Below are positions 9,702 to 32,000 of a stretch of 32,000 nucleotides of DNA, piece after piece. The stretch's first letter is position 1, and every line of letters begins with the position of its first letter. The DNA is taken from assembly GCA_964401865.1 (NCBI GenBank), contig CAYNZZ010000001.1:1-32000 (forward strand). Direction: 5' to 3'. Position numbers and translations under genes: made by a program. Origin of the DNA: an uncultured Erysipelotrichaceae bacterium (GTDB lineage Bacteria > Bacillota_I > Bacilli_A > Erysipelotrichales > Erysipelotrichaceae). The notes beneath the pieces were generated by a model that saw nothing but the letters and a program-made list of their open reading frames with translations, made no database searches and had not been told where the DNA came from.

Positions 9702-10068
9702 TTTTATCCTTTAAATCTTCGATTTGTTTTTTTAAATTAGCTATCTCATAATTTAAATTAATAATTTCTTCATTATGTTTGGAAAGTTTTAAATAAACAT
9801 AAAATGTAAAACAGTACAGTAAAAAGATATTAATCAAGAACACGGTATTAACCGGCATTTGAATGCTTAATATATCCGATACAAAAAATGTTATCTGCGG
9901 GAAAACAGATATGGCAATCATGCCGATGCCCCAAATAATCCATATCATTGAATAGTGAATATTCATTTTGTTTTTTATTACGCATCTTAGTACAAATATC
10001 AATGATATTAACGACACAGCAAATAAACCAATTTGTAATTCTAAGCCCATATATAACTCCCTTACCAC
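9694..10068 (-). CDS. DUF2304-family small membrane protein, the usual partner of a DPM1-like GT2.
   Basis: The 124-aa product has four short TM segments and a C-terminal coiled-coil-like tail (NLNYEIANLKKQIEDLKDK), with IHYSMIWIIWGIGMIAISVFPQ in the middle. It lies immediately downstream of, and overlaps, a soluble GT2, which is the typical DUF2304 context. The start could also be the ATG at 10050 (MGLELQ...). Confidence 0.6.
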   Translation of the reverse strand: MVRELYMGLELQIGLFAVSLISLIFVLRCVIKNKMNIHYSMIWIIWGIGMIAISVFPQITFFVSDILSIQMPVNTVFLINIFLLYCFTFYVYLKLSKHNEEIINLNYEIANLKKQIEDLKDKND

Positions 10069-10730
10069 TGTACAAAAACAATCGACAATATGACGCCAAC
10101 CATAAATTTTATTGATTTGAAAGGGTTTTTAAAATAGCTCTCTCCACCATCTCGTCCTTTCATTTCTACTTGAACTTCTTTGACTTTGTATCCATGGTGA
10201 ATGGTATAACACATCGCGTCAGGTTCAGCATAAAAGTTCATGCTTTCAGCAAAATCTTTTAATACATTTTTCCCTAATGCACGCATGCCACTAGTAGGAT
10301 CCGTTACTTTTACACCGGTTTTAAACCTAATAAAAAAACAAATGATTCTACTTCCAAGCATTCTTAGAGAAAACGGTTTTTTCTCATCTACAAATCTCGA
10401 ACCAACTACATAATCATAGCCATTGCTTATCTCCTTAATTAAGTCGTGCACATATTTCGGCTGATGTTGTCCATCGCCATCAATGCATATTGCACAATCA
10501 TAACCATTTTCATATGCGTATTTAAAACCAATTCTTGTTACACCAGCAATACCGACATTAATTGGCAAATCAAGAAAGTTATATTTATTATTTCTAATAA
10601 TGTTTTCCGTATTGTCGGTTGAATTATCATTTATTATCAAATAATCATAGCCAAAAGAATTGATGTCAGTTATCAATTTTTCGATGTTGGCTTGTTCATT
10701 GAATGTTGGAATAATCAATAATGTTTTCAT
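10062..10730 (-). CDS. GT2-family glycosyltransferase, dolichyl/polyprenyl-phosphate sugar synthase-like (DPM1/Ppm1 type).
   Basis: The 222-aa product carries LLIIPTFNEQANI, INDNSTDNT, CIDGDGQHQP (a D-x-D type block) and VVGSRF. It has no long C-terminal TM region and pairs with DUF2304. Confidence 0.75.
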   Translation of the reverse strand: MKTLLIIPTFNEQANIEKLITDINSFGYDYLIINDNSTDNTENIIRNNKYNFLDLPINVGIAGVTRIGFKYAYENGYDCAICIDGDGQHQPKYVHDLIKEISNGYDYVVGSRFVDEKKPFSLRMLGSRIICFFIRFKTGVKVTDPTSGMRALGKNVLKDFAESMNFYAEPDAMCYTIHHGYKVKEVQVEMKGRDGGESYFKNPFKSIKFMVGVILSIVFVQW

Positions 10731-18345: not shown

Positions 18346-19273
18346 AATCTAATAATTTACCATATAGAGATTTCTTTCCATTAGTTTCTTTCAAAAGAAT
18401 TTGTTTACGATTTAATTTATGCAAACATGAATTAATTTTTTTTATATCACATACATCTACTTCCGAGGACGAAAGCCATTCTGATAATTTATGATAATCA
18501 ATATTGTTAATTTCTACTGCATCAATCATTTTTTTAATTTCTATGTCATCATTATATAGTATAGAAATAAACATATCTATTAAAAAATAATCTATCATTT
18601 CATTATGTTTTTCCCAATATTTTTCAAACAAATTCGATAAATAATACATAAGCTTGTTATTTTTATTTGACGCCATCGCAAAGCTAGTCCAACGACCTTG
18701 AACAATTGAATGATCTTCTTTTTTTTGTGGTCTTCTCATAGTCCAAAAATTATTCTTAAAAATAAAATCTAGTTCCCCACTCGCAAAAATTGTCGAATCA
18801 AGCCAACACCCGCCTGATTGATATAATAAATTAACTCTAATAATATCCGAAAAATGAATTTTTGATATAACTCCTTTTTTATATTTTTCCATAATGGATT
18901 GAGGAATCAAGCAATATCTCATCAAAGTATCGTCGTTTAAACAAATAAACTTAATGTCAGCAATGTTGTTAACTAATGAATTTTCACACATTTTAACTAA
19001 ATCTGGTTTATTTTTGGAATCCCAAAATGTGTAAATCGTCTTGTTAATCCCACAGTCACAACTCTTGTATTCTTTTTTCAATAGTTCGATATCCTTTTCA
19101 AATTCACTTTTTAAATAATTCATTTTAGTTTTATTGAGTTCTTCCTCTTTGCAACTTGTACATAATCCCAAACTCGCTCTTAAACCAATCGCAAAGTGAT
19201 TCATCGTCATTTTAAAGCCAAAATTATTAAGGTATTTTAATAAATATGCTATTTTTTTGTGCATCGTTTTCAA
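18335..19273 (-). CDS. Capsular polysaccharide synthesis protein family (Caps_synth, GT32-like putative glycosyltransferase).
   Basis: The 312-aa product has IYTFWDSKNKPDLVKMCENSL...ISKIHFSDIIRVNLLYQSGGCWLDSTIF. This matches the family pattern (W..W....P.iV..C..S......is.ah.SD.lR..LL...GG.W.D.T). Confidence 0.7.
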   Translation of the reverse strand: MKTMHKKIAYLLKYLNNFGFKMTMNHFAIGLRASLGLCTSCKEEELNKTKMNYLKSEFEKDIELLKKEYKSCDCGINKTIYTFWDSKNKPDLVKMCENSLVNNIADIKFICLNDDTLMRYCLIPQSIMEKYKKGVISKIHFSDIIRVNLLYQSGGCWLDSTIFASGELDFIFKNNFWTMRRPQKKEDHSIVQGRWTSFAMASNKNNKLMYYLSNLFEKYWEKHNEMIDYFLIDMFISILYNDDIEIKKMIDAVEINNIDYHKLSEWLSSSEVDVCDIKKINSCLHKLNRKQILLKETNGKKSLYGKLLDYEQ

Positions 19274-19301
19274 TTCCTTTGTTAAATATCAAAAATTTTT
19301 A

Positions 19302-20252
19302 TTAACCATTTCTTGTTAATTCTGTTTTTGTTATTTTCGAGTATAGTTTCCTTGCTACAATCAATATATTTTTAGGTGCTACTGAAATTAAAAATAAAAT
19401 AAAATAAGGAGATTTGTTATAAAGTTTTAAATATGGATAATATTCTTTTAATAATTTCGGACTAAAGAAATCTTGCGATCTCAAAGACATCAAGATTAAG
19501 TTCGACATACTTTTTTTTCGATTACTTATTATTTGCATTTTAATTTTATAATCATATGTCAACGGTAATCCCATCACCAAATTTGTCCATCCTTTAGCAT
19601 ATATTTCTAAAATTCTATCATTATACGAAATAACTCCTGGTCTTAAAATTCTTGCATAGTCAGGGCCATAAATGTATTGTACGGTTGAATCATGAACTCC
19701 AAAATATTCGAAAATTGCACCAGTTTGAGGAAATTCTCCTAAAGAGTACCTTTCGAATTGCAAATTTTTAACAACATCTCTTTTGTATAGCAATCCAGAC
19801 ATCCATGTCGATTCATCAATCAATTTTATTATTGTTTCATTTCTATCTCGATAGATTTTTTCTTCTATATGTTTATCTCTTCCAATTATCACAAAATCCG
19901 GAGATACTCTTTCTTTTTCGATTTTTTTTATAACCTTTTCGATTTTAACATCTATGGTGTCATCGTCCCCTAGCATCCACGCATAATCTTTTTCACACAT
20001 TTTAACACACTCGCCATTGTTGCCCTCGAAACCTAAATTTATCTTATTTTTTTTGATAGTTATACATTTTATTTCTTTTTTTAAATTCAAAAGTAAATTG
20101 TAGGTATCATCTTTAGAACAATCATCAGATATATAAAAATGGCAAATGCCTTCATCAAAAAGGTCTTTGTTATTTTGGTATATATGCATTATACTTTTTT
20201 TTGTTATTTCACCCCTTTGATAAGTTGGGATACATATTCCTATTGTTTTCAT
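19302..20252 (-). CDS. GT2-family glycosyltransferase.
   Basis: The 316-aa product has IGICIPTYQRGEIT, FYISDDCSKDDT and MLGDDD. The fold assignment is reasonable, but the specificity is unknown. Confidence 0.65.
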   Translation of the reverse strand: MKTIGICIPTYQRGEITKKSIMHIYQNNKDLFDEGICHFYISDDCSKDDTYNLLLNLKKEIKCITIKKNKINLGFEGNNGECVKMCEKDYAWMLGDDDTIDVKIEKVIKKIEKERVSPDFVIIGRDKHIEEKIYRDRNETIIKLIDESTWMSGLLYKRDVVKNLQFERYSLGEFPQTGAIFEYFGVHDSTVQYIYGPDYARILRPGVISYNDRILEIYAKGWTNLVMGLPLTYDYKIKMQIISNRKKSMSNLILMSLRSQDFFSPKLLKEYYPYLKLYNKSPYFILFLISVAPKNILIVARKLYSKITKTELTRNG

Positions 20253-20450
20253 AGTGTCCTGTTTTTAATTTTTATTTTTTAATAATTCCTTCCTTTTTTA
20301 TTAATAATTAAAAAATCGATTTTATTTTTTATAATTGTAGTAAATTTCTAATAAAATTCAATAAAAATTTTATATTTCTTTTTTTTGCAAAGAATCACTT
20401 TCGCTGCAATCTAACCATCTTTTTTAAGCTCGGTTTTACCAATCAATTCT

Positions 20451-21098
20451 TTATGTATTTAAAAAACCAACATAGTCAAATTGATCAATGTATCTAAGCA
20501 CTTTATTCCGTTTAAACGCCAGTACAATTCCCTGCTCTTTTTCATTTCCTTTAATGTATTTACTATTTTTTATATTATATTCTTTATTAGTTAATATTAC
20601 TTTTTTTTCATATCTTAGTTTTTCGAACTCTTTTAAATCATCGATATCCCATTCATCAGTAGTACATGTTAATAAAATGTATATTTTTTCTTTCTCGAGC
20701 CTGTCAATTCTTCTACACCAAGCAACATACGCTTCATCGAAAGTCTTATAATGTATAAATCTTATTTTTATTTTTCCTCCCCAAATTCCAATTGGATATT
20801 TTCCGCTTTCATCAATTTCGTTGCTCTTCTCTATATTATATTTATTTTCAACAAAAAAATAATCATAATTATTTAATGCGTATATTATATCTTTTATTAA
20901 TATTGACAAACCAACTGTAGGCGAATTATACCTCATCTTTAGACTTTTACATATTAATCCTCCGTTGCAATTGTTTGAAATAATACATCTATATTTAGGT
21001 TTTAGTCTTATTCTATTAATAAAATCAATCGTTTTATATAATACGCTTCCTACTAAAGCGGTTACTTTGGGCAACAAGTTGCATATTTTATCAATCAT
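20451..21098 (-). CDS. DUF1919-family protein (exopolysaccharide-locus protein of unknown function).
   Basis: The 215-aa product has CIISNNCNGGLICKSLKMRYNSPTVGL, YPIGIWGGKIKIRFIHYKTFDEAYVAWCRRIDRL. This matches the DUF1919 pattern (isnnCwGG..y......SPtvgl....yPvg......i.f.HY....eA..kW.rR..R). Confidence 0.7.
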   Translation of the reverse strand: MIDKICNLLPKVTALVGSVLYKTIDFINRIRLKPKYRCIISNNCNGGLICKSLKMRYNSPTVGLSILIKDIIYALNNYDYFFVENKYNIEKSNEIDESGKYPIGIWGGKIKIRFIHYKTFDEAYVAWCRRIDRLEKEKIYILLTCTTDEWDIDDLKEFEKLRYEKKVILTNKEYNIKNSKYIKGNEKEQGIVLAFKRNKVLRYIDQFDYVGFLNT

Positions 21099-22104
21099 TA
21101 TTATTCATCCTTTCATCTATTATTTTTTTTATGTATTTTGTAGAACATAGTTTTACAAAAAAATTATACTTTAAGCACCTTCTAAATATTGCTAATAAAA
21201 AGTTGTTCACAAAAAAATAATTTGATTTTTTCCATTCAACACCGGTATTGTTTAATATGTAAATTATTTTTTCCTTTCTGCTTATCAATTCATTTATTTT
21301 TTTATTTTCTAATATATCATAGATTAAATAATCAAACATTTTATTCACACATGTTTCATTTATGAAATATATGTAATCACTATTTGACATCCTTTCTTTA
21401 AAATAATCAATGTTGCTCTCTGTGACCAAGAATAAATCATCAATCATTTTTTGACTTTTTAAATTCATTATTGATTCTGGACGGTTTATCCTATAAAAAT
21501 AAAGTGGCACATCTAGATACGAGAATGTTTCGGCATGATAAAAAACCTTAAACGCAACTGCGTCATCTTCATGCAAAACCCCTTCAGGAAATAAAATGTT
21601 ATATTTTAGGTATATGTTTCTTTTACAAGCAAATGTCCATATTGACGAACAATTTAACCTTATTTTGTTTTTATCGAAATCACATGATTTTTTGAATGTT
21701 AAAATGTCTTTTTTTTCATCCAATTCATAGTAATTAAATAATATCAAATCATCATCAAACTTACTTATTTGTTCAATCATTTTTTCATCAACATAATCGT
21801 CAGAATCTACAAAAATTATATATTCTCCTTCAGCGTTTTTTATACCAATATTTCTAGCTGCAGAAACGCCTCTATTAGAAATACTTATTACTTTAATCGA
21901 ATCGTTATTTAAATAAGAATCACATATTTTTTTGCTATTATCACTTGAACCATCATCAATTAATAATAGTTCGTAGTTTTTGATAGTTTGTTTTAATATT
22001 GATTCGATACAAAAACCAACATATTTTTCTGTGTTATAGACAGGGACAACGAAACTATATCTAGGTTTTTGTTTTTTTTTCTTTTTTTCAGTTGCGCCAA
22101 TCAT
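21091..22104 (-). CDS. GT2-family glycosyltransferase.
   Basis: The 337-aa product has YSFVVPVYNTEKYVGFCIESILKQT, YELLLIDDGSSDNS, ARNIGIKNAEGEYIIFVDSDD. These are classic GT2 (Glycos_transf_2) blocks. An A9 tract lies in codons 8-11. Confidence 0.85.
   Translation of the reverse strand: MIGATEKKKKKQKPRYSFVVPVYNTEKYVGFCIESILKQTIKNYELLLIDDGSSDNSKKICDSYLNNDSIKVISISNRGVSAARNIGIKNAEGEYIIFVDSDDYVDEKMIEQISKFDDDLILFNYYELDEKKDILTFKKSCDFDKNKIRLNCSSIWTFACKRNIYLKYNILFPEGVLHEDDAVAFKVFYHAETFSYLDVPLYFYRINRPESIMNLKSQKMIDDLFLVTESNIDYFKERMSNSDYIYFINETCVNKMFDYLIYDILENKKINELISRKEKIIYILNNTGVEWKKSNYFFVNNFLLAIFRRCLKYNFFVKLCSTKYIKKIIDERMNNND
22072..22088 (-). repeat. A9 + A7 homopolymer pair (coding strand) at the 5' end of the GT2 gene.
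   Basis: The plus strand has T9 at 22072-22080, c at 22081 and T7 at 22082-22088. The coding strand reads GAA AAA AAG AAA AAA AAA CAA, encoding EKKKKKQ. Confidence 0.9.
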
Positions 22105-22118
22105 ACAATAACATCACC

Positions 22119-23258
22119 TTAAACTTTCTCATAATAAGTATCCGGCTTACTCTTATCAAATATTTCATTAGCCCACATAACGGTTATTAATTCTTCGGTG
22201 TCTGACAAATTAACAATGTTATGAGTATAACCCGGGAGCATATGAATAGCTTCTAATTTCTTATCATTCACTTCGAATTGTAATACTTCATCGCTATCTA
22301 TTTGTCGCATTTCAATCAAAGCTTTACCTTTAACTACAATAAAATATTCCCATTTAGTGTGATGCCAATGTTCTCCTTTAGTAATACCTGGTTTTGAAAT
22401 ATTAACCGATACTTGCCCGAACTCCTTTGATTTTAACAGTTCAGTAAAACTTCCTCTATCATCAATATTGCTATCTAACGGAATACTGATTTTATTTTTA
22501 GGTAAATAAGATAAATATGTTGAATACAGTTTTTTTGTGAATTCATTAGATAAATCAGGAATAAATAATCCATCAGCAAAACTATATAATGTATCTTTTA
22601 ATATTTTAAGTGAAACATCATATATCGGTAGGGCACTATAATAATCTTTTTCTTCATCAAAATATGCATTACCATCTATACAATTAATTATTTCACTTAC
22701 TACATCATCAATATATACAAATGGAATAACAGCGCTCTCATCATTTACTGTAATATCTAAATCATTAGCGATATTGTAGCACCATGTTGCAACAACACTA
22801 TTATAATTAGGTCTGCACCACTTGCCAAAAACATTGGCGAGGCGATAAATATATACCACATTTCCTTGTTTTTTAGAAAAATCTTTTATGTAGTCTTCGC
22901 CTTGTTTTTTAGATAACGCATAGTCATTATCTTTACCAACTTGAACACTAGATGTAACTAAAACAGGGCACTTATTATTATTTTCTTTTAAGTATTCACA
23001 TAAAAGTTCTATTGTTCCTTTATTGCCATCATAGAACTCTTTATTGTCTTTTGGACGATTAACTCCTGCTAAATGTACTACAAAATCACAATCTTTAGTA
23101 TATTTTCTTAAATCATCTAAATTATTATTTCTATCATATTCGTATATTTCAGAAACACAAATAGGGAAAGAATTGTCTTTCCCATTTTTAATATTTTTTA
23201 GAGTGTGGACTAGATTTTTTCCGATAAATCCATTTGAACCGGTAACCAATATTTTCAT
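22119..23258 (-). CDS. fnlB: UDP-2-acetamido-2,6-dideoxy-L-talose-forming reductase/epimerase (CapF/Cap5F/FnlB/WbjC type): SDR domain plus C-terminal cupin.
   Basis: The 379-aa product has an N-terminal SDR motif (MKILVTGSNGFIGKNL) and a C-terminal cupin-like block (GITKGEHWHHTKWEYFIVVKG). This two-domain layout is characteristic of CapF. The gene lies 2 nt downstream of capE. Confidence 0.85.
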   Translation of the reverse strand: MKILVTGSNGFIGKNLVHTLKNIKNGKDNSFPICVSEIYEYDRNNNLDDLRKYTKDCDFVVHLAGVNRPKDNKEFYDGNKGTIELLCEYLKENNNKCPVLVTSSVQVGKDNDYALSKKQGEDYIKDFSKKQGNVVYIYRLANVFGKWCRPNYNSVVATWCYNIANDLDITVNDESAVIPFVYIDDVVSEIINCIDGNAYFDEEKDYYSALPIYDVSLKILKDTLYSFADGLFIPDLSNEFTKKLYSTYLSYLPKNKISIPLDSNIDDRGSFTELLKSKEFGQVSVNISKPGITKGEHWHHTKWEYFIVVKGKALIEMRQIDSDEVLQFEVNDKKLEAIHMLPGYTHNIVNLSDTEELITVMWANEIFDKSKPDTYYEKV

Positions 23259-23260
23259 AA

Positions 23261-24295
23261 TTACTTAAATAAATCTAACTTCAACAGGAGTTTCTTCATT
23301 CCTTCTACATCTAATCTTTCAGTATTGTGTGAATTATATTCTTCCGCTCTTTCAAAAAGTGTAGTTCCTTTATTGATATATTTGTCATAGTTGAGATCTC
23401 TATTATCAGCCGGAATCCTAAAATAATTACCCATATCTATAGCCTTAACCATATCTTCCTTAGTGACTAATACTTCAAATAGCTTCTCGCCATGTCTTGT
23501 GCCAATATAAGAAATATTTGGTTTAACATTCTTTAATTCACATACCGCATGAGCCAATGTATCTATGGTTGCTGCCGGCGCTTTTTGAACAAATAAGTCT
23601 CCTTGCTCGCCATTATTAAATGCATATAAAACTAAATCAACCGCATCTTCAAGTGTCATCATGAATCTGGTCATGTCCGGATTAGTAATAGTAATAGGTT
23701 TGTTTTGTTCAATTTGTTCACAGAATAAAGGAATAACGCTTCCTCTTGATGCCATAACATTTCCATATCTAGTTAAACATAAGACAGTATCATTTTCACT
23801 CAACTGTCTAGATCTCGCTACCACATTTTTTTCCATTAATGCTTTTGTCATACCCATAGCATTGATAGGGTAGGCAGCTTTATCTGTAGATAAGAATATA
23901 GCTTTTTTAACCTTATTTTTTACACATGCGGTAATTACATTATCCGAGCCTAAAACATTAGTCTTAACTGCTTCAATAGGATAGAATTCGCAACTTGGAA
24001 CTTGTTTTAACGCAGCAGCATGGAATACATAATCAACACCTTTAAACGCGTATTCGATGGAATTATAATCTCTCACATCACCAATATAAAATTTTAATTT
24101 ATTCGCATATTCAGGATATAAAGCTTGATATTCGTGTCGCATATCATCTTGTTTCTTTTCATCTCTTGAAACAATTCTTATTTCTTTGATATCACTTAAC
24201 AAAAATCTTTTTGTAACCGCATTGCCAAATGAACCCGTACCGCCAGTTATTAGTAATACCTTATCTTTAAATATTGACATATCATCCTCCAACAT
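23261..24295 (-). CDS. fnlA: UDP-GlcNAc 4,6-dehydratase/5-epimerase (CapE/Cap5E/FnlA/WbjB type).
   Basis: The product has KVLLITGGTGSFGN, IRIVSRDEKKQ and the Met-for-Tyr catalytic variant AMGMTKALMEK typical of CapE-type enzymes. The likely true start is the ATG at 24280 (MSIFKDK...). That ATG is preceded by GGAGG at 24290-24286 with 5-nt spacing. The track start at 24295 would place the SD inside the ORF. Confidence 0.9.
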   Translation of the reverse strand: MLEDDMSIFKDKVLLITGGTGSFGNAVTKRFLLSDIKEIRIVSRDEKKQDDMRHEYQALYPEYANKLKFYIGDVRDYNSIEYAFKGVDYVFHAAALKQVPSCEFYPIEAVKTNVLGSDNVITACVKNKVKKAIFLSTDKAAYPINAMGMTKALMEKNVVARSRQLSENDTVLCLTRYGNVMASRGSVIPLFCEQIEQNKPITITNPDMTRFMMTLEDAVDLVLYAFNNGEQGDLFVQKAPAATIDTLAHAVCELKNVKPNISYIGTRHGEKLFEVLVTKEDMVKAIDMGNYFRIPADNRDLNYDKYINKGTTLFERAEEYNSHNTERLDVEGMKKLLLKLDLFK

Positions 24296-24304
24296 TCTCG
24301 CTTT

Positions 24305-24313
24305 ATTTTAACA
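24305..24313 (-). promoter_or_regulatory. Possible extended -10 promoter element (TGTTAAAAT) for the capE-led polysaccharide operon.
   Basis: The minus strand reads ...gaTGtTAAAATaaagcgagaatgttGGAGGatgatATG. A TGnTAnAAT-type element sits about 14 nt upstream of the capE SD, inside the 36-bp spacer after the TOPRIM-like gene. The -35 is weak. Such motifs occur by chance in AT-rich DNA. Confidence 0.3.
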
Positions 24314-24331
24314 TCATATTTACACATTTAA

Positions 24332-24853
24332 TTATACATGTTTATTCTTAATTACTTTAATACCTTGTTTTGTAGAAAATTCTTTAAAACATCCTTTGCC
24401 TTGCCTTGACCACAATTTATCATTATCAAAATTTAAGCTATCCAATTTGGTCTTTAATCCTTCGCTGTTTGCTTTGATAAACTTATTTTTAAAATCACTT
24501 TTAGTTTTTGTGTCAAAGAACTCATTAATGTTATTGATGCTTGTTGAATATATTATTTCATCTTCAAAATCTTTAACTGAATGAATGTGATAAATATTCT
24601 TGATTTTATGCTTTCTTAATTTAGCGATATTTTCATTTAATACATCTGTTTTTTCGACATCAGTATCATAAACCAAAATTATATTTACATTCGGCTTTAA
24701 GTTCATGATTTGCATATCAGAAATTCTTTTGTTGATAAAGTTACATACCGATATTTTACCTGCGACTATACAGTTATATTTAGGATTTTTCAAAATGTTT
24801 ATTAACTTTTCTTCACATTCTCCTTCGACAAAATATTGATATAATTTACTCAT
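24332..24853 (-). CDS. Small TOPRIM-like protein (OLD C-terminal / RloB / DUF4276-like). Predicted nuclease partner of the upstream ATPase.
   Basis: The 173-aa product has strand-1 YQYFVEGECEEKLINIL with conserved Glu (E10, nt 24826-24824). About 50 aa later comes NIILVYDTDVE, a DxD block (D63/D65, nt 24667-24659). E...DxD at this spacing is the TOPRIM signature. A GGAGAG SD lies 4 nt upstream of the ATG. The start overlaps the ATPase stop by 8 nt (ATGAGTAA). Confidence 0.6.
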   Translation of the reverse strand: MSKLYQYFVEGECEEKLINILKNPKYNCIVAGKISVCNFINKRISDMQIMNLKPNVNIILVYDTDVEKTDVLNENIAKLRKHKIKNIYHIHSVKDFEDEIIYSTSINNINEFFDTKTKSDFKNKFIKANSEGLKTKLDSLNFDNDKLWSRQGKGCFKEFSTKQGIKVIKNKHV

Positions 24854-25973
24854 TAATCTCTCCTAATTCAATTATTTTATCAATATTTGGAGATATTCCG
24901 AAAATATCATTATCGACTATTATCTTGGCACTTACATTATTACGATTTTCAACTTCTGCAGCATTGTTACATACAATATAAGTTTTGTGTTCATCTTTTT
25001 CTTTTTTCATAAAATTAAACGCATGAAAAGGCAATTTTAAATCGAGAACTTCATTGTTGTGAGTAGTAATAAAAACTTGTTCATCATTTCCAATTAACAA
25101 TGCAATTAAAGAAATATAAGCTTTTTCCAAGTCACTGTTAACATATGAAAATTGTTCATCAATAAGATATATACCATTTTTTTGTTTTTTAATACAATAA
25201 ATGATCTTTGCAATATTAAATGCGTATTTTGTTCCGCTAGATAATTTATTTAAATCGGTTAAATTCATACCATTTTGAACAATTATTTTACCTACTTCGC
25301 TATGGTCGATTACATATGCATCGTCTGTATCTTTACTTTTTGTCACTTGGACAATTGAAGGATCAAAGCTTTTTAGCACAATGTTTAAAATTTTTGAATA
25401 TAATATTTCCTCTTCTTGGTCTAATTTTAATATATCAACTTGGTCGAATACCTTTTCTGTGCCAGGCAATGTAACAAGCCATCCGGTACCTATTTCTAAT
25501 TTATTAAGGGCTTCTATATAATCCATAAAATGAAAATAATATTTATCAATTTTCTTTATTAAATAATTATATGAATAACTATATTTTAACTCAATGGAAT
25601 TATAGGCCACAGATATTTTTGAATCAGATTCAATAGGTTCAACCAGTATTTTGATTCGATAAAACATATTACCAAAAATAAAATCCAATTCAACATTTGA
25701 TTCAAAATTCTTATCACGAATTATTGAATCAATATAACTTCTTTCTTTTTTACATATAAAAATTAAAATGTTCCATACTGAACGAATGAGCGATGTTTTT
25801 CCACTTGCGTTTGCACCAATAAAAATATTCAACTTTTTATAGTTAATCTTTGGAAAATCAGAAACAAATTCATCTTTTATCAAACTATTCTTTGTTTTTT
25901 TAGGATGTGATAAATTTAATTCAAAATCATTAAAAGATAAAATGTTATCCATTTTAATGTTCAATATAGGCAT
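24846..25973 (-). CDS. ABC-type (AAA_21/AAA_15-like, OLD/SMC-clade) ATPase.
   Basis: The 375-aa product has Walker A GANASGKTS (aa 53-61, nt 25817-25791, checked by hand). It also has a signature-like LSSGTKY (aa 244-250), Walker B GIYLIDEQ (aa 267-274) and a His-switch region FITTHNN (aa 301-307). A long insertion lies between Walker A and the signature, as in OLD/AbiL/PARIS-type ATPases. An AAGGAG SD sits 8 nt upstream of the ATG. Confidence 0.75.
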   Translation of the reverse strand: MPILNIKMDNILSFNDFELNLSHPKKTKNSLIKDEFVSDFPKINYKKLNIFIGANASGKTSLIRSVWNILIFICKKERSYIDSIIRDKNFESNVELDFIFGNMFYRIKILVEPIESDSKISVAYNSIELKYSYSYNYLIKKIDKYYFHFMDYIEALNKLEIGTGWLVTLPGTEKVFDQVDILKLDQEEEILYSKILNIVLKSFDPSIVQVTKSKDTDDAYVIDHSEVGKIIVQNGMNLTDLNKLSSGTKYAFNIAKIIYCIKKQKNGIYLIDEQFSYVNSDLEKAYISLIALLIGNDEQVFITTHNNEVLDLKLPFHAFNFMKKEKDEHKTYIVCNNAAEVENRNNVSAKIIVDNDIFGISPNIDKIIELGEINE

Positions 25974-25988
25974 ATCTTTTTCTCCTTG

Positions 25989-26021
25989 TCATAAATATTC
26001 AAAAAAATTGAATATTTATGA
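25989..26021. promoter_or_regulatory. Perfect 14-bp inverted repeat (TCATAAATATTCAA-N5-TTGAATATTTATGA) in the leader of the ATPase gene. Candidate operator or RNA hairpin.
   Basis: The arms at 25989-26002 and 26008-26021 are exact reverse complements, separated by a 5-A spacer. The repeat lies directly between a TATAAT (26031-26026, minus strand) and the SD (25987-25982). No U-tract follows it on the transcribed strand, so it is not a classical terminator. Confidence 0.6.
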
Positions 26022-26025
26022 CATT

Positions 26026-26051
26026 ATTATACAACTAAATCATTTATACAA
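26026..26051 (-). promoter_or_regulatory. Putative promoter for the ATPase/TOPRIM pair.
   Basis: The minus strand reads cTTGTATaaatgatttagttgTATAATaatg. TATAAT is at 26031-26026 and a TTGTAT -35-like hexamer at 26051-26046. The spacing is only 14 nt, which is suboptimal. The element lies in the 79-bp gap between the ThyX-like stop and the ATPase start. Confidence 0.35.
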
Positions 26052-26052
26052 G

Positions 26053-26661
26053 CTAGTTAGATTTTACTCTTTCCCCAACAATAAATTCACTATGTGGCAA
26101 CGTCTCAAGCCAATCACAAAATGCCTGCCACTCTGGCAATCTATGTGTTCTTCTTTGGTGATAAATGGTTTTCAACTGGCGATAATTAGTTGTCATCTTG
26201 GCAGTCAGTTTGAATCCTGCCGGATTCGAATATAATATCTCTAAGTATTTTTCTTTTAGTGATTCATCAAAAGGATCTTTGGCTTGTAACTCGTTATAGG
26301 CGCCGACTTTTTCTTTCATTATTTCAATCATTCTTGGATCGACATATTCAATATATGAATTGTCCAAATTGAATCGGCATATTCTGTGCATTGTTGATTG
26401 ACTGGAAATAAAATCCAAAAAATGATAACGTTCTGCTTCAACCCACGCTTTATTAGTAAAAGTTAAATCAAATTGTACCAAAATGCCATTTAAAAAATTG
26501 TCATGTCCTTCACCAGTCTTGCAGGTAGCCAATCTTTCTACTGTTTTAGTCACCTCATCATTCACTTTTGTCAGATCGGTAGCCATTGGATATTTGCTTC
26601 CCTTAATCGCTTCTTCAAAACCATAGATTCTAACATTCGATATTACATCTTTAATTTCCAT
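26053..26661 (-). CDS. ThyX (Thy1) fold-like protein lacking the canonical RHRxxS motif. Function unknown.
   Basis: At 202 aa it has ThyX-like length. The block GEGHDNFLNGILVQFDLTFTNKAWVEAERYHFLDFISSQSTMH aligns by eye to ThyX GHeSpfEH..ftF.i......arq..RHR..SfsqqSqRY. The block MTTNYRQLKTIYHQRRTHRLPEWQAF aligns to t.N.R.l..f..lR....AqwEir. RHRxxS is replaced by RYHFLD. A GAGGA SD lies inside the 3' end of the LtaS-like gene, with only 4 nt between the two genes. Confidence 0.45.
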   Translation of the reverse strand: MEIKDVISNVRIYGFEEAIKGSKYPMATDLTKVNDEVTKTVERLATCKTGEGHDNFLNGILVQFDLTFTNKAWVEAERYHFLDFISSQSTMHRICRFNLDNSYIEYVDPRMIEIMKEKVGAYNELQAKDPFDESLKEKYLEILYSNPAGFKLTAKMTTNYRQLKTIYHQRRTHRLPEWQAFCDWLETLPHSEFIVGERVKSN

Positions 26662-26665
26662 TTTA

Positions 26666-28519
26666 TCAATCCTCTTTTTTATAATAGTCGCTAATCAATA
26701 TATCTTGACTATATTTGAATATTTTATTTACCTTTTCAACAATTCTATCATGAAAAAGGGTAGCAGTGTTGTCATCAATACCATTTAAGCCAAAGACAGT
26801 GTTCTTATCAGAATCAAAGTAAAAAAAATCACTCAATATACTTCCGTTTTCAAACAATACCATTCTTTCGGCGTTTTTATCAAAAACATCCTTGCCAACC
26901 TTATAATAATCCGATGAATCAAGATTAAACATGTTCGTGATAGTAGGATATAAGTCAAATGTTGAACATAATGTATCAGATTCGTTTATTCCTAATTCTT
27001 TGTTATAAATCAAAAATGGCACCTTATAAATATCTACTCCATCTTCCTTTAGAATATTGCTTTTAGCTTCATCACTTTTCAAACCATAAGGATAATGATC
27101 ACCAAACATGATTATTACTGTATTATCTAATTCACCTCTATTCTTTAACTCTTCTATCAAAACTTCAATTCCTTGATCTAGCAACATCTGTGCTGCATAA
27201 TACGATTTTGTCTCATCATCTAAATTTTGATATTTTAAATTGCTATTAATTATTTCTAAATTTTCTTTTAATTCATCACGACTAATGCGATAGGGCATAT
27301 GTCCACTCACTGTGATTACAAAATTATAAAACGGTTTGGTAAAATCAGTATTTTCTACCATCTTTTTAAATAGTTCTTCATCTTTTATCCAATTTATTGT
27401 TTCTTTATAACCATCATATCTTTCTATTCCTAACTTCTCCATGTCATAAAAAGTATCAAAGCCAAAAGAATCATGAATTATTTCCCGATTATAGAAATTA
27501 GACATATACGAATGATAAGAATTGACATTATATCCTTTTTCTTTGAACAAATTAGCTAAAGCATTGGGATAACTATTTAAATGAAAGGTGTATGAAGTTG
27601 TTCCATATTCTATCGACGGAAGCATAGAAGTTTGAGAAATGAATTCACTATCTCCGGTAGCAGCATTAAAAATAGGGGCATAATAATTGTCAAAATAATA
27701 ACCATTTTGCGCCATATTATATAAAGTTGGAGTAAGATCTTCTAAAATGGCGCTTTCGCCAAAAGATTCACACAAAATCATGATCAAGTTCTTTCCTTCG
27801 AAAAAACCGGTCATCTCATTATCATTTGTCACTTTAAATTCATCAACAAATTCTCTTACTTCTTGTAATTCTTCTTTATTTAATTTTTTTGAACCACTTA
27901 AACTAAAACTGACATCTTTATTGATAAATTGCATGACTCCAAATCTTTCTAAATAGCGATTTCGATTCTGCATACATTTTAAAAGGTAGTAATCCTTTCG
28001 CCATGATTTATCAATTAAATAATCTTGTCTCAATGATTCGTTAATTCCTATATAACCCGCATTAGAAATAGCAATCATTGCCACCGTAAATATCATTTTA
28101 TATTTCTTGGGCAATTGATACTCTTTTGGTTTTATCATTATCATCAATAAAATCGGCATTATAAATAAAATAAAGGCCGGATTCCATTTTTCAAATATCT
28201 CGCCGGCTACGCTAAATAATTCACCGCTTAAACTTAGCTTTCTAAATGAAAACAATGTCTTAAAATATGCATAATGAAAGCTTTGAGCAAAACAATAAAT
28301 TGAGGAAACTGCAATTAATCCGATTTCGATTTTCTTTCTTATTTTCCCTTTAAATAAAATTAAGATAGCAGAAATAAATAATAAAAAACACATATCGTAT
28401 AGCATTGCCTGAGAAGTGAAAAAAGCTATATCACAAAAATAGCGAAGGAGTATTTCATTCGCTATCATCAACATAAATAGAATTAAGATGTCATAATATC
28501 CTAAAAATATTTTTTTCAT
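26666..28519 (-). CDS. ltaS: LtaS-family (sulfatase-fold) lipoteichoic acid synthase / phosphoglycerol transferase-like membrane protein.
   Basis: The 617-aa product has five N-terminal TM helices and then an extracellular sulfatase-type domain. Motifs are NLIMILCESFG, FNAATGDSEFISQTSMLP (the Thr nucleophile region), HSYMSNFYNRE, VSGHMPY and IIMFGDHYPYG. The stop is TGA. The gene overlaps the upstream GT2 by 4 nt. Confidence 0.8.
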   Translation of the reverse strand: MKKIFLGYYDILILFMLMIANEILLRYFCDIAFFTSQAMLYDMCFLLFISAILILFKGKIRKKIEIGLIAVSSIYCFAQSFHYAYFKTLFSFRKLSLSGELFSVAGEIFEKWNPAFILFIMPILLMIMIKPKEYQLPKKYKMIFTVAMIAISNAGYIGINESLRQDYLIDKSWRKDYYLLKCMQNRNRYLERFGVMQFINKDVSFSLSGSKKLNKEELQEVREFVDEFKVTNDNEMTGFFEGKNLIMILCESFGESAILEDLTPTLYNMAQNGYYFDNYYAPIFNAATGDSEFISQTSMLPSIEYGTTSYTFHLNSYPNALANLFKEKGYNVNSYHSYMSNFYNREIIHDSFGFDTFYDMEKLGIERYDGYKETINWIKDEELFKKMVENTDFTKPFYNFVITVSGHMPYRISRDELKENLEIINSNLKYQNLDDETKSYYAAQMLLDQGIEVLIEELKNRGELDNTVIIMFGDHYPYGLKSDEAKSNILKEDGVDIYKVPFLIYNKELGINESDTLCSTFDLYPTITNMFNLDSSDYYKVGKDVFDKNAERMVLFENGSILSDFFYFDSDKNTVFGLNGIDDNTATLFHDRIVEKVNKIFKYSQDILISDYYKKED

Positions 28520-29469
28520 TTTTCTTCGTGATTAATATATTCTTCAATAAAATATCTCGGTCTTTTTTTAGACTCAATGAAGTTTTTGCCAAGATATTGG
28601 CCAATAATACCAATGGATATCAATTGTACACCGCCAATGAACCAAATAGATGCAAACAAAGAAGTCCAGCCAATAATTGTCTCACCGCTGAAATGACGAA
28701 TAATGGCATATATTATTATTCCAATACTAAATATTGTTGAAATAATACCAAGATATAAAATAAGAGTTAAAGGCTTAATGCTGAAAGATGTAATACCATC
28801 AAATGCAAAAGCCAACATCTTTTTAAACGGATATTTCGATTCACCTTTGAGTCTTTCTTTTCTAGCGTAGTACACACAAGCTGTCTTAAATCCTAATTCA
28901 GGAACAATGCCCCTTAAGAATAGATGACTTTCTTCATACAACGACAATTCTTCCGTCGCTCTTTTAGACATTAAACGGAAATCGGCGTGGTTATACACAC
29001 TCTTGACCCCTAAAACACTCATCAGACGATAAAAACTCTGAGCTGTGAAACGTTTAAAGAACGAATCGGTGCTTCTATCTTTTCTAACACCATATACAAT
29101 ATCATTACCATCGTGATAATAATCAATCATTTCTTCAATAACCGCTATATCATCTTGTAAATCTGCATCAATAGAAATACTTATATCAGCATTCTCTTTC
29201 ACATACATGAGTCCGGCAAAAAGGGCATTTTGATGTCCTTTGTTACCGGCTAATTTTAGTCCGTGGACATGTTCGTCGTTATCATAACCGGTTTTAATTT
29301 TGGACCAGGTCTTATCTTTAGAACCATCATCAACATATAAAATATAACTATCCTGAGAGATTTTTTCTTTACTAATTAAATCTTTCAAAACCTCTAGCAG
29401 CTTTTTATTACTGTCTTCAAAAACTTCTTCCTCGTTATAGCAAGGAACTACAATCGCACATCTTGTCAT
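28516..29469 (-). CDS. GT2-family polyprenyl-phosphate sugar synthase (CsbB/GtrB/YkcC type) with two C-terminal TM helices.
   Basis: The 317-aa product has CAIVVPCYNEEEV, ILYVDDGSKDKT, SIDADLQDD, YGVRKDR and two C-terminal TM segments (LTLILYLGIISTIFSIGIIIYAI, LFASIWFIGGVQLISIGIIGQYL). This is the typical GtrB/CsbB architecture. There is no SD. TATAAT at 29482-29477 ends 7 nt before the ATG. Confidence 0.8.
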   Translation of the reverse strand: MTRCAIVVPCYNEEEVFEDSNKKLLEVLKDLISKEKISQDSYILYVDDGSKDKTWSKIKTGYDNDEHVHGLKLAGNKGHQNALFAGLMYVKENADISISIDADLQDDIAVIEEMIDYYHDGNDIVYGVRKDRSTDSFFKRFTAQSFYRLMSVLGVKSVYNHADFRLMSKRATEELSLYEESHLFLRGIVPELGFKTACVYYARKERLKGESKYPFKKMLAFAFDGITSFSIKPLTLILYLGIISTIFSIGIIIYAIIRHFSGETIIGWTSLFASIWFIGGVQLISIGIIGQYLGKNFIESKKRPRYFIEEYINHEEK

Positions 29470-29770
29470 ATCAATTATTATATCCCAAGTTATAGTTATT
29501 CATTAAATTAAATTTAATTTTTAGTTAGATTTCAAAAAATAGATTTTATTGTAATAAGAGAAGATGAAAGAATTTATGTACAAGTATTTAGAAATATTCC
29601 CAAAATTCTGATCGAGAAATTTCTAATTTATCTGATATAAAAGGCCGTAATATATAGCTGCTCTTGATGAATATACGATTGACAATATAAACGGCATAAA
29701 AATTATGCACTTAGCAGATTTCCTTTTAGTAAACAGTTATTAAGTTTATTAAAACTGGAAACAGTCGAAA

Positions 29771-29820
29771 ATAAAAAAGTTGATTTCAAATATTTATTAG
29801 TCAAACTTTGAAATCAACTT
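29771..29820 (-). terminator. Rho-independent terminator downstream of metQ.
   Basis: A perfect 14-bp stem is formed by AAGTTGATTTCAAA (29777-29790) and TTTGAAATCAACTT (29807-29820), with a 16-nt loop. On the minus-strand transcript the hairpin is followed by TTTTATTTTCG. It lies 48 nt after the metQ stop. The large loop and AT-rich stem lower confidence. Confidence 0.55.
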
Positions 29821-29867
29821 CATAAGTCATATTAAGCGGTTTTTAAATACTTATCAATTAGATTTTA

Positions 29868-30704
29868 TTATTCAACAGGAATTACTGAGCCTTGGAATTT
29901 TTCCAAAATAAAGTCTGTAACTTCTTGAGATTTTAATACTTCGACCAAAGTTTTGATCTTATCTGAATTTTCATCACCATTACGACATGCAATGATATTC
30001 ACATATTCATTATCTTCACTGCTTTCTAATATAAAAGCATCTTTTGAAGGATTAAGACCTGCACCGATAGCATAGTTACCATTGATACCCACCAAATCAC
30101 CATCATTATTAGTATATGCACTTGTAAGCATTTCAGGATTTACTTCTACAAATTTTAATTTTTTTGGATTTTCTTCAATATCTTCAACTGTTGCATCAAC
30201 AACATTAACACCATCTTTTAAAGTAATTAAACCAGCATTTTGAAGCATTGCAAGTAATCTTCCATGATCGGCGATAGAGTTAGAAATCACAACCGTTGCT
30301 CCATCTTCAACATCATCAACAGTTTTATATTTTGTTGAATAGAAACCGAATGGTTCAATATGAATTCCGCCAGCATTAACGATATCGTATCCTTTTTCTT
30401 CTACTTCACCGTTGAAAAATTTAATATGTTGGAAATAGTTAGCATCTACATCGCCGGAATCTAAGGCTACATTGAAGATGTAATAGTTATCTAAGATTTC
30501 GATTTCTAGATCATAACCTTTTTCAGCTAATAAAGGTTTAGCAAATTCCAAAATAGTAGCGTGTGGTTCAGCAGTACAAGACACTACAATCTTTTCTAGT
30601 TGTTGATCGACTGTTTTATCGGTGGTTGTAGGGTTGTTGCTGTTAGAATTTGAACAGCCAAACAGTAGTGTAGTAATTAGTAATAAAATAAATATTTTTT
30701 TCAT
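29868..30704 (-). CDS. metQ: Methionine ABC transporter substrate-binding lipoprotein (MetQ/NlpA family).
   Basis: The 278-aa product has a signal peptide with a lipobox (LLFGCSNS). NlpA-family blocks are present (ANYFQHIKF, GIHIEPFGFYS, IANDxGR-like SIADHGRLL, VEVNPEML). It lies downstream of metI and metN. Confidence 0.88.
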   Translation of the reverse strand: MKKIFILLLITTLLFGCSNSNSNNPTTTDKTVDQQLEKIVVSCTAEPHATILEFAKPLLAEKGYDLEIEILDNYYIFNVALDSGDVDANYFQHIKFFNGEVEEKGYDIVNAGGIHIEPFGFYSTKYKTVDDVEDGATVVISNSIADHGRLLAMLQNAGLITLKDGVNVVDATVEDIEENPKKLKFVEVNPEMLTSAYTNNDGDLVGINGNYAIGAGLNPSKDAFILESSEDNEYVNIIACRNGDENSDKIKTLVEVLKSQEVTDFILEKFQGSVIPVE

Positions 30705-30715
30705 GTTTAATCTCC

Positions 30716-31384
30716 TTATCTTTTATCAACTTTCTTACTTATATAATCTCCCGATATTTGTATCAGAAATACAATAATCATAATCATTACGGTTGAAGTC
30801 CACATCAATGGTTCATTTTTTCTGATAATGCCATATTGATACGCTTCAAATCCTAATCCTCCAGCGCCGACAGCACCAGCCATCGTGCTATATGATACTA
30901 GGTTAATCGCCGTAACCGCAATAGATGAAATGAGTGTCGGCATACTTTCAGGAATTAATACTTTAAATACAATTTCTAAGTTACTAGCACCAATAGCTTT
31001 CGATGCTTCAATCGTTCCTTTATCAACATCACTAAAAGCCAAGACAACCATTCTGGCAAAAAAAGGAATAGCTGCCAAGGTTAGCGATGGAATAGCTGCC
31101 TTTACGCCGATAGTTGAACCTACTAAGAATTTTGTGAATGGAAGTAACCATATAAGCAATATCAAGTAGGGAACTGATCTGAATATGTTAACTAAACCAT
31201 CAGAGGCAACATTTAATGATCTGCTAATCTTATTTTTTCTTACATTAATAATCCCATTATCACCTGTTATAAAAATAATGATTCCGATGACCGAGCCAAT
31301 TATAACCGCAAGTAATAATGGTACAAAAGTCAAAATTAAAGTTTCGCATAATGGCTCATATAATTTATTAAGTAATTCAATCAT
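30716..31384 (-). CDS. metI: Methionine ABC transporter permease (MetI).
   Basis: The 222-aa product has five TM helices and the EAA-type loop EASKAIGASNLEIVFKVLIPESMP. The gene sits between metN and metQ. Confidence 0.88.
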   Translation of the reverse strand: MIELLNKLYEPLCETLILTFVPLLLAVIIGSVIGIIIFITGDNGIINVRKNKISRSLNVASDGLVNIFRSVPYLILLIWLLPFTKFLVGSTIGVKAAIPSLTLAAIPFFARMVVLAFSDVDKGTIEASKAIGASNLEIVFKVLIPESMPTLISSIAVTAINLVSYSTMAGAVGAGGLGFEAYQYGIIRKNEPLMWTSTVMIMIIVFLIQISGDYISKKVDKR

Positions 31385-31385
31385 C

Positions 31386-32000
31386 TTATACCACCTCTAC
31401 CTTAACTTTTTGCCTTTGCAATTCCTCGACTAAAGGTCCGATATCAGAACGCTCACCGATATGAATATACATTACACCTAATGCTCCGGCTTGCGTATTT
31501 TTAATGTTAGCACTGACGATATTAATAGGAATATTTAATTTAGTAACTACTTCATATAATATCGGTTTTTCACTGGTTTCATTTTCAAAGGTTACTCTTA
31601 GCAAATGCCCATCAGGATATTTTTCTTTTAATTCTCTTGCAAGTTTAACGACATCTACTCCAGTATCTACTGTTTGAATAAGTTCTTTTGTAACTTTATG
31701 AGTAGGGTTAGTGAAAATATTTTCCACCGTATCAATTTCCACAACTTCGCCATTTTTCATCACCGCAAGGCGGTGACATATTTTCTGAACCGTTTCCATC
31801 TGATGAGTTATCATCAAAATTGTAAGATTCATTTCTTTATTAATTTGTTTAAGCAAATCTAATATATCTTCGGTCGTTTTCGGATCTAAAGCGCTGGTAG
31901 CCTCATCACATAACAGAATATCCGGTTTTAAAACAAGTGCTCGAGCAATGGCAACCCTTTGTTTCTGACCACCTGACAAATTACTTGGATAAACATTTAA
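31386..32000 (-). CDS. metN: Methionine ABC transporter ATP-binding protein (MetN), partial because the N-terminus lies outside the window.
   Basis: The frame stays open to the window edge (LNVYPSN-LSGGQKQRVAIARAL). The ABC signature, Walker B (ILLCDEATSALD), H-loop (ITHQM) and a C-terminal NIL/ACT-like domain (LLRVTF...GALGVMYIHI) are all present. Confidence 0.9.
   Translation of the reverse strand, partial: LNVYPSNLSGGQKQRVAIARALVLKPDILLCDEATSALDPKTTEDILDLLKQINKEMNLTILMITHQMETVQKICHRLAVMKNGEVVEIDTVENIFTNPTHKVTKELIQTVDTGVDVVKLARELKEKYPDGHLLRVTFENETSEKPILYEVVTKLNIPINIVSANIKNTQAGALGVMYIHIGERSDIGPLVEELQRQKVKVEVV

Follow-up and report, generated by a model that had tools for sequence, protein, structure and literature searches.

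What are two short, overlapping genes doing between two groups of cell-envelope genes? The question is raised by a stretch of 32,000 nucleotides (nt) from an uncultured Erysipelotrichaceae bacterium (contig CAYNZZ010000001.1 of GenBank assembly GCA_964401865.1, positions 1 to 32,000, forward strand), referred to below, at its full length, as the window. Gene 1 encodes a protein of 375 amino acids (aa) with ATPase motifs, and gene 2 a protein of 173 aa with TOPRIM-like motifs. [quoted passage not shown] The pair was found to be a strictly two-gene, horizontally mobile module and not a fixed accessory of the neighbouring capsule genes; the reading favoured here, and considered probable, is that of a self-contained mobile module of ABC ATPase and TOPRIM nuclease, most likely directed against phages or mobile DNA.

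The motifs quoted in the first-pass annotation are all present in the two translations: Walker A GANASGKTS at residues 53-61 (with K59), LSSGTKY at 244-250, IYLIDE at 268-273 and TTHN at 303-306 of gene 1, and VEGECE at 9-14 and VYDTD at 61-65 of gene 2. Because they are conserved in the respective families, they are more than chance occurrences. In gene 1, the catalytic parts comprise Walker A (G53-T60), the signature (S245-G247-T248), Walker B (D272-E273) and the H-loop (H305). Among 42 ATPase relatives, including the most distant, G53, N55, G58, K59, T60, S245, G247, T248, D272 and H305 are invariant, and E273, beside Walker B D272, is invariant or nearly so; given this conservation of all four elements, gene 1 is predicted to hydrolyse ATP. 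Its product passes the Pfam family AAA_21 with 44.1 bits (cut-off 27), and its best PADLOC model is AbiLi (PDLC02335; E-value 1.3e-22, 78 bits, profile positions 50-271 of 326), followed by AriA (4e-12, over only the C-terminal 74 aa, residues 238-311), PDC-M38A, mad3 (1.5e-9) and NsnB. A match to the PADLOC model HEC-01A (8.7e-5) covers residues 36-66 only, the Walker A region, and phrog_5836 was matched at 1.6e-35. Nothing in NCBIfam came near its cut-off (recF TIGR00611, 27.8 bits vs 172; MAD3 NF047739, 12.6 vs 420), and the closest sequences in the PDB are Rad50 (3e-4) and AriA (7e-3), with no close solved structure. By these profile matches and motifs, gene 1 is assigned as a catalytically complete ABC ATPase of AAA_21/AbiLi type, in agreement with its earlier placement in the ABC/SMC clade. 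The alternative of an ABC transporter subunit was rejected: ABC_tran reached 13.3 bits against a cut-off of 25, and no permease adjoins the gene here or in related loci.

Gene 2 had been read as TOPRIM on the strength of its Glu and DxD motifs, and this part of the earlier reading stood on the pattern of residues, the order of strands and helices and the matches of relatives. A first search yielded 63 clusters at 90% identity, and a profile search of 1.84 billion representatives (E<=1e-3) extended the family to 912 clusters at 50% identity, with members of about 165-180 aa. In an alignment of 147 relatives, less than 50% identical to one another, E10, G11, D65, K122 and W148 are invariant, and Y7, V9, E14, G32, N38, D63, N75, E97, E99 and L137 are conserved in at least 90%. 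The AlphaFold2 model of the protein (predicted local distance difference test score, pLDDT, 94.6) has the order b1(5-9)-a1-b2(33-36)-a2-b3(57-63)-a3-b4(87-92)-a4, then a helical tail; in it, E10 directly follows b1, D63xD65 lies where b3 ends, and E97xE99 comes directly behind b4. In the TOPRIM layout, a Glu follows the first strand and DxD the third (PMC6755086). The two-metal site of BpOLD, established by crystallography and mutagenesis, consists of E400, E404, D455, D457, T506, E508 and K562 (PMC6755086), and E10, E14, D63, D65, E97, E99 and K122 of gene 2 occur in the same linear order. When the model was compared with the PDB using Foldseek, the C-terminal regions of OLD proteins (6nk8, 6njw, 6njv and 6njx) took ranks 1, 2, 3 and 5; entries of BFVD labelled 'Toprim-like' and DnaG-like primases were matched with a strength similar to that of the PDB matches.

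The most persuasive sequence evidence for TOPRIM identity came from the 147 relatives scanned singly. Against PADLOC, AbiLii was the most frequent match (48/147, best 2.3e-6), HEC-01B models came second (1e-4 to 1e-2, best 1.2e-4), and GajA was also matched. Against Pfam, OLD-like_TOPRIM was matched by 18 relatives, OLD-like_TOPRIM_1 by 12, Toprim_2 by six, DUF4276 by four and Toprim by three; all of these TOPRIM-clan matches lie below the cut-offs of their models, and the matches fall almost solely on models of that clan. RloB and DUF4435 were absent from the 25 Pfam families with the largest numbers of matching relatives.

Several results weigh against the TOPRIM assignment. The gene 2 protein reaches the threshold of no model in Pfam, NCBIfam or PADLOC; in particular, no TOPRIM, RloB, DUF4276 or DUF4435 model was passed, the best being Toprim_2 at an E-value of 0.2, and the one real profile match is to phrog_10204 (PHROG 10204; 8.8e-20), whose function is unannotated. 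The OLD fold matches fall below the usual significance (E-values of 4e-3 to 2e-2, template modelling scores of 0.3-0.4, best 0.41). When the core alone (residues 1-112) was refolded, the top place went to designed Rossmann 2x2 proteins, rank 8 to OLD and rank 34 to the Toprim domain of RNase M5 (1t6t); on this model, OLD would match the core no better than generic Rossmann-like folds do, and the TOPRIM signal was not sharpened. Profiles of the gene 2 family found no relative among PDB sequences, only spurious matches to repeat proteins and thermosomes, and an hhalign comparison of the family with P2 Old was negative and, being made against one sequence, uninformative. A homologue search with the C-terminal part of P2 Old had returned only five fragments, and a scan of viral contigs with P2 Old only relatives 73-100% identical to it; the comparison was thus limited to the single P2 Old sequence for want of an OLD-TOPRIM reference profile. 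Taken with the conserved residues, membership of gene 2 in the TOPRIM superfamily is judged very likely, if short of formal proof, and the protein is most likely a minimal TOPRIM nuclease standing outside all curated families.

The two genes overlap by 8 nt, the stop of gene 1 and the start of gene 2 sharing ATGAGTAA on the coding strand (ttactcat on the plus strand, 24846-24853), and each has a ribosome-binding site, AGGAG 8 nt 5' of the ATG of gene 1 and AGGAGAG 5 nt 5' of that of gene 2. The coordinates given in the first-pass annotation, which had left the minus strand unstated, were confirmed, and translation of the two genes is coupled. When one genome per species was scanned, 48 loci with a gene 2 relative were recovered in other species; every one (48/48) has an ATPase homologue as the next gene upstream, in the same orientation, and the two genes usually overlap by 1-11 nt or lie a few bases apart. 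The hosts form a scattered set: Mollicutes, Acholeplasmatales and Erysipelotrichaceae, metagenome-assembled genomes (MAGs) of other Bacilli, Butyrivibrio, Lachnospiraceae and other Clostridia, Spirochaetes such as Sphaerochaeta, Bacteroidaceae (Phocaeicola dorei among them), a MAG of Chloroflexi and the gammaproteobacterium Leucothrix. A search of the fetched loci (designated by L numbers) with the family hidden Markov model found no distant paralogues.

The pair is also carried by mobile elements. The human gut phage NatCom_17901 has it inserted, in opposite orientation, between the genes for portal and large terminase, in the Acinetobacter prophage Ab105-3phi it stands beside the integrase, and it is present on the mobilizable Acinetobacter plasmid pYH12207-5 (12.7 kb), where the small partner is a true member of the gene 2 family (hhalign probability 97.5%). 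Among six viral contigs of IMG/VR with a gene 2 relative, five have an ATPase homologue directly upstream. Invariant presence with capsule genes is thereby ruled out, the pair crossing phyla, mobile elements and defence islands. At five loci (L028, L038, L055, L056 and L057) gene 2 is frameshifted or truncated (at about 10001-10500 or 1299-1750 of the respective loci) and the ATPase gene is intact. Such decay fits a dispensable and potentially toxic effector, or may reflect errors of MAG assembly. At L058, both genes are broken.

The palindromic leader noticed in the first-pass annotation proved to be a perfect inverted repeat of 16+16 nt, TGTCATAAATATTCAA-N5-TTGAATATTTATGACA, with a TTC-N9-GAA core at 25998-26012. 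It is unique within the window, begins 2 nt downstream of a TATAAT hexamer and stands directly upstream of the AGGAG of gene 1. For comparison, the 70-nt stretches preceding the ATPase genes were set against 383 control regions from in front of other genes at these loci. Of the ATPase upstream regions, 49% contain an inverted repeat of at least 11 bp, vs 3.7% of the controls (Fisher p 5e-16), and nearly all of these repeats have TTC-N9-GAA in common. That motif occurs in 43/50 loci vs 9/383 control regions, the consensus with its further symmetric flanks being tATttaTTCAAAAAatTTGAAtTtAta. The spacing is N8 or N10 in place of N9 in three of the 50 loci; four have no TTC-GAA core at any spacing of 7-11 nt, and three of these four (L046, L048 and L050) have a related or degenerate palindrome at the same position. 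The phage, prophage and plasmid copies have the core as well, as do three further loci. In many homologous loci the palindrome is preceded, at a distance of 1-3 nt, by the end of a promoter resembling TTGACA-17-TATAAT (for the promoter in the window, the -35 consensus gave no match), and the order palindrome, GGAG, ATG is kept in most. Mirrored positions covary: 4/12 is occupied by A:T, G:C or C:G, and both -2/18 and -3/19 by A:T/T:A. No paper describing the TTC-N9-GAA motif was found in a literature search. A transcription terminator was considered and rejected: the palindrome accompanies the ATPase gene, always following a -10 box, regardless of the upstream surroundings. The TTC-N9-GAA palindrome is a new, module-specific cis element that travels with the pair.

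Since the palindrome crosses phyla with just two genes, it would be recognised by one of their products or by the complex of both, and the conserved half-site, the fixed 9-nt spacing and mismatches that are not wobble pairs favour a DNA operator. A DNA operator would in turn imply autorepression, as in type II toxin-antitoxin modules, and the module is probably autoregulated via the palindrome by analogy with these. It speaks against this proposal that neither protein has a recognisable DNA-binding domain, which leaves autorepression as pure inference. The palindrome could instead act as a 5'-terminal hairpin in the mRNA, as a stabiliser of the transcript or a decoy or substrate of the nuclease, a reading regarded as possible but on the unlikely side. 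Starting 2 nt after the -10 box, the palindrome would be mostly transcribed; its predicted RNA fold is stable (-19 kcal/mol, z -4.6), the covariation of mirrored positions (4/12 and -2/18) would suit pairing in RNA, related TOPRIM nucleases cleave structured RNA, and P2 Old senses single-stranded DNA (ssDNA) hairpins. However, the conservation of the TTC/GAA sequence and of the 9-nt spacing goes beyond pairing alone, the asymmetric pairs are T:T, A:A and A:C and not G:U, the central 'loop' is only 1 nt in some loci, and no Rfam family matches the region.

The coordinates of the pair and of its leader are collected below with those of selected related loci.

Coordinates of the gene pair, its upstream elements and comparable features (window positions unless a locus is named)
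Feature	Position	Strand	Description
Gene 1	24846..25973	minus	Open reading frame (ORF); 375-aa ABC/SMC-clade ATPase, proposed sensor or regulator subunit
Gene 2	24332..24853	minus	ORF; 173-aa TOPRIM-like protein, proposed metal-dependent nuclease effector
Palindrome	25987..26023		Candidate operator or 5'-terminal leader hairpin of the two-gene operon
TATAAT -10 hexamer	26026..26031	minus	Likely own promoter of the module, read from the sequence
Gene 1 ribosome-binding site	25982..25986	minus	AGGAG, directly 3' of the palindrome
CapD-type polysaccharide edge	L019 and L038, 11786-12748; L078, 9792-10817; L009, 4630-9155		
Phage NatCom_17901 copy	L060, 6884-8483 (= PV036423.1, 21578-23177)		With TTC-N9-GAA palindrome; both genes annotated hypothetical

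Within the window, the pair is preceded by a GT2 glycosyltransferase gene, a gene for a 617-aa sulfatase-domain (LtaS-like) protein and an ORF of 202 aa, and followed by CapD-type (Polysacc_synt_2), CapF-type, glycosyltransferase and further capsule-type genes. As had been noted, the pair and these flanking envelope genes are all co-directional, and there is neither integrase nor transposase within about 10 kb; dnaA is about 9 kb beyond the module. The 202-aa ORF (26053-26661, minus strand) is directly upstream, with the promoter and palindrome between it and gene 1; its earlier label 'thyX-like' was not borne out, no match being found in Pfam, PADLOC or the PDB, and it adjoins the pair solely in the source species (0/48 loci of other species). 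A second inverted repeat, whose 15-nt arms (24831-24845 and 24874-24888) are 93% complementary and stand 28 nt apart, encloses the overlap of the gene 1 stop and gene 2 start together with the gene 2 ribosome-binding site, and could be a modulator of translational coupling or a chance occurrence in AT-rich DNA. From the negative GC skew throughout 18000-32000, the minus-strand orientation of all genes between about 6.2 kb and the window's right end and the proximity of dnaA, the window is placed on one replichore near the origin. Just beyond its right end, a methionine-transporter ATPase gene (ABC_tran + NIL) varies by strain, being split into 90 + 252 aa in L001 and L005 (2435-3468) and intact, at 344 aa, in L002-L004 (2434-3468); the split is either a strain-level frameshift or a sequencing artefact.

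The surroundings of the pair in other genomes are described by plain counts. Some copies lie in defence islands: L009/L022 have Abi_2, an N6 methyltransferase, HNH, Abi_alpha and ThsB_TIR, and L077 an ADP-ribosylglycohydrolase, PLD, a 1187-aa SIR2 protein and HNH. The PADLOC models matched among the 137 nearest neighbours (E<=1e-5) include PDC-S01, PDC-S46, the CBASS cyclase, PifA, AbiEii, QatA and mad3. In L006 and L076 the surroundings are housekeeping genes, and in the window, L019, L038 and L078 (related genomes of Mollicutes and Bacilli) the pair stands at the edge of a polysaccharide locus. The first-pass remark that the pair has nothing obvious to do with glycan synthesis has to be qualified by this recurrence at polysaccharide-locus edges.

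How such a module might act can be proposed by analogy. In PARIS, a hexamer of AriA holds AriB until a trigger releases it, whereupon the AriB dimer cleaves tRNA-Lys (PMC11464382), and recent work on P2 Old describes a tetramer whose destabilisation opens the TOPRIM site so that tRNA is cleaved, ssDNA hairpins at a phage origin being sensed. By analogy with these two systems, an oligomer of the gene 1 ATPase would hold the nuclease inactive and sense a cue of infection; once triggered, the nuclease would be released or opened and would cut nucleic acid, either tRNA, as AriB and P2 Old do, or DNA, as do GajA and the class 1/2 OLD proteins. Cleavage would then arrest the cell or the invader and so abort the infection. 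In addition, one of the proteins, or else a complex of both, may bind the palindrome and repress its own operon in the manner of type II toxin-antitoxin modules, a proposal drawn from where the palindrome stands, with the -10 box on one side and the ribosome-binding site on the other, and from its transfer with only these two genes. The sequestration step, modelled on PARIS, is put forward tentatively. A quite unlikely variant is that the ATPase/TOPRIM complex is a sequence-specific binder of its own TTC-N9-GAA, as duplex or hairpin, and is titrated by similar structures on invading DNA, which would induce the operon and unleash the nuclease; if true, the 'reference hairpin' of the module would provide a directly testable pair of sensor and ligand for the whole superfamily.

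A role in defence, with its target and trigger likewise proposed by analogy, is considered rather probable, and a number of observations count against it. Several genomic contexts are housekeeping or polysaccharide loci and not defence islands. The GC content of the pair (0.23-0.28, vs 0.25-0.35 around it) is a little lower than in its immediate flanks and equals that of the capsule genes, so that the pair is not clearly foreign and its composition gives no argument for or against foreign origin. The presence/absence polymorphism that the first-pass annotation had suggested looking for was not seen in the source species: all contigs found, whether looked up via the small protein or via the 202-aa upstream protein, carry the pair in the same place. 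Finally, HEC-01 (Hma-embedded candidate), the only comparable small candidate put to a defence assay, gave no protection in E. coli (bioRxiv 10.1101/2024.01.29.577857).

Three other explanations were weighed against defence. The pair could be a selfish addiction module of the toxin-antitoxin kind, in which the TOPRIM nuclease would be the toxin and the ATPase its antitoxin, that persists by post-segregational killing and autoregulation and offers no real anti-phage benefit. It is compact, overlapping and operator-controlled, as type II toxin-antitoxin operons are; a copy resides on a small mobilizable plasmid, the neighbours include RelB, AbiEii and HTH genes, decay affects the nuclease gene preferentially, and PARIS formally behaves as a toxin-antitoxin pair (PMC13064643). 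But PARIS, the known ABC-ATPase and TOPRIM pair with such behaviour, is a defence system, the present module also occupies defence islands and a phage accessory slot, and a 375-aa ATPase with all of its catalytic motifs would be an expensive antitoxin unless it sensed something; pure addiction is held to be decidedly improbable. Far less probable still is a role for the pair in assisting or regulating the polysaccharide locus of the cell envelope, for instance by acting on capsule expression. It would explain the position before the CapD-type gene, from which gene 2 is separated by 36 nt without a terminator, and the occurrence of the pair beside CapD-type genes in L019, L038, L078 and L022; Polysacc_synt_2 is also the commonest Pfam family among the nearest neighbours, at 4/137. 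Against this stand the loci without nearby sugar genes, which are the majority, and a chemistry of nuclease and ATPase with no obvious part in glycan synthesis. In L019, moreover, CapD is 73% identical to that of the window and the pair only 44%, which suits a variable hotspot at the start of the capsule operon better than a functional link or a co-inherited unit, and in L009/L022 the defence genes Abi_alpha and ThsB_TIR are interleaved with the same sugar-nucleotide genes. Polysaccharide loci seem to be hotspots for defence genes in this clade of Mollicutes and Bacilli.

The last explanation, a housekeeping pair for DNA repair or recombination with a divergent RecF- or Rad50-like ATPase and a RecR-like TOPRIM protein near the origin, is the most remote of the three. 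RecF is about 370 aa and RecR about 200 aa, sizes similar to those of the pair, the recF model has a weak match at Walker A, Rad50 is the best PDB sequence match, and dnaA is nearby. Yet the recF match spans 25 residues and scores far under its cut-off, and no RecR, zinc-finger or HhH model was matched, and on these grounds an identity with RecF and RecR was rejected. The patchy phyletic distribution, the phage, prophage and plasmid copies, the pseudogenised copies and the module's own operator and promoter also argue against a housekeeping function, and the reading as a mobile module, probably of defence, was retained.

[quoted passage not shown] A pair of this kind is well known and unsurprising in principle; what is new is an unannotated, compact family and its regulatory palindrome. 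The family is the smallest version seen here (about 43 kDa + about 20 kDa), a size attractive for structural and biochemical work, and it is frequent among gut and rumen Mollicutes-like Bacilli, Clostridia, Spirochaetes and Bacteroidaceae; the models now in Pfam, NCBIfam and PADLOC miss its nuclease subunit. A profile of the 147 sequences would let annotation tools detect some 900 clusters now labelled hypothetical, and the conserved operator of 15-27 bp offers a handle on which subunit binds nucleic acid and on how expression is coupled to activation.

The known kinds of AAA_15/21-type ABC ATPase joined to TOPRIM, whether paired or fused, are the OLD classes, Gabija, PARIS, AbiL, MADS3-4 and HEC-01, and those nearest to the present pair by profile are AbiL and HEC-01. 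In AbiL, an abortive infection system of Lactococcus plasmids whose AbiLii belongs to the RloB family, the ABC ATPase likewise comes first and the small TOPRIM-type protein second; AbiLi is the best PADLOC match of gene 1 and AbiLii the commonest among the gene 2 relatives. The predicted structure of AbiLii superimposes on OLD 6NJV (PMC13064643), which the model of gene 2 also matches, below significance. Gene 2 itself, however, has no match to AbiLii or to Pfam RloB (PF13707) at any reported E-value, gene 1 is shorter than AbiLi (375 vs about 453 aa) and its partner of 173 aa shorter than AbiLii, and the conserved TTC-N9-GAA operator of the present module has not been described for AbiL. HEC-01 is a two-gene system of ABC ATPase and TOPRIM protein with a metal site that aligns to that of BpOLD (bioRxiv 10.1101/2024.01.29.577857). 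It is the nearest of the candidates put to assay, being likewise small and of two genes, with HEC-01B the second most frequent match among gene 2 relatives, but the HEC-01B matches are weak and that of HEC-01A is confined to the Walker A region of gene 1.

With the OLD proteins (P2 Old, class 2 BpOLD and XccOLD, and Gabija GajA), gene 2 shares the order E-x3-E, DxD, (T/E)xE, K, and their C-terminal regions provide its best PDB folds and OLD-like_TOPRIM the commonest Pfam matches of its relatives. In OLD the ATPase and TOPRIM parts are fused, whereas they form two ORFs here and in all 48 related loci; the matches are, moreover, sub-threshold, and the helical domain that follows the TOPRIM core is much smaller in gene 2. 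PARIS, too, combines an AAA_15/21-type ABC ATPase with a separate TOPRIM nuclease and is often found on phages or satellites, but AriA, at 464 aa, has coiled-coil and trigger-binding inserts and its models match gene 1 only over the last 74 residues of the latter, and AriB, of about 35 kDa, belongs to DUF4435, to which gene 2 has no match. Mad3/Mad4 of MADS and NsnC of Menshen represent ABC ATPases with a small effector of the TOPRIM superfamily bearing Glu and DxD motifs (PMC12065111). Gene 1 matches the PADLOC model mad3, as given above, yet it falls far short of the NCBIfam MAD3 cut-off, DUF4276 matches are weak and limited to four of the 147 relatives, and no methylation or ParB-type partner genes lie beside the present pair.

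Because gene 2 fails the models of AbiLii/RloB, DUF4435, DUF4276 and PF20469, and the matches of the ATPase are partial, the pair is not assigned to any of these systems. It is set apart, as judged from its sequence, by its size (375 + 173 aa, vs about 453-464 aa + about 300 aa in known pairs, the first-pass observation that both proteins are shorter than the characterised ones being upheld), by the very short helical domain after the TOPRIM core, by a family of its own of about 900 clusters and by its conserved operator. The pair would represent an unnamed, minimal and widely transferred relative of the PARIS, AbiL and OLD anti-phage systems, with a function predicted from theirs.

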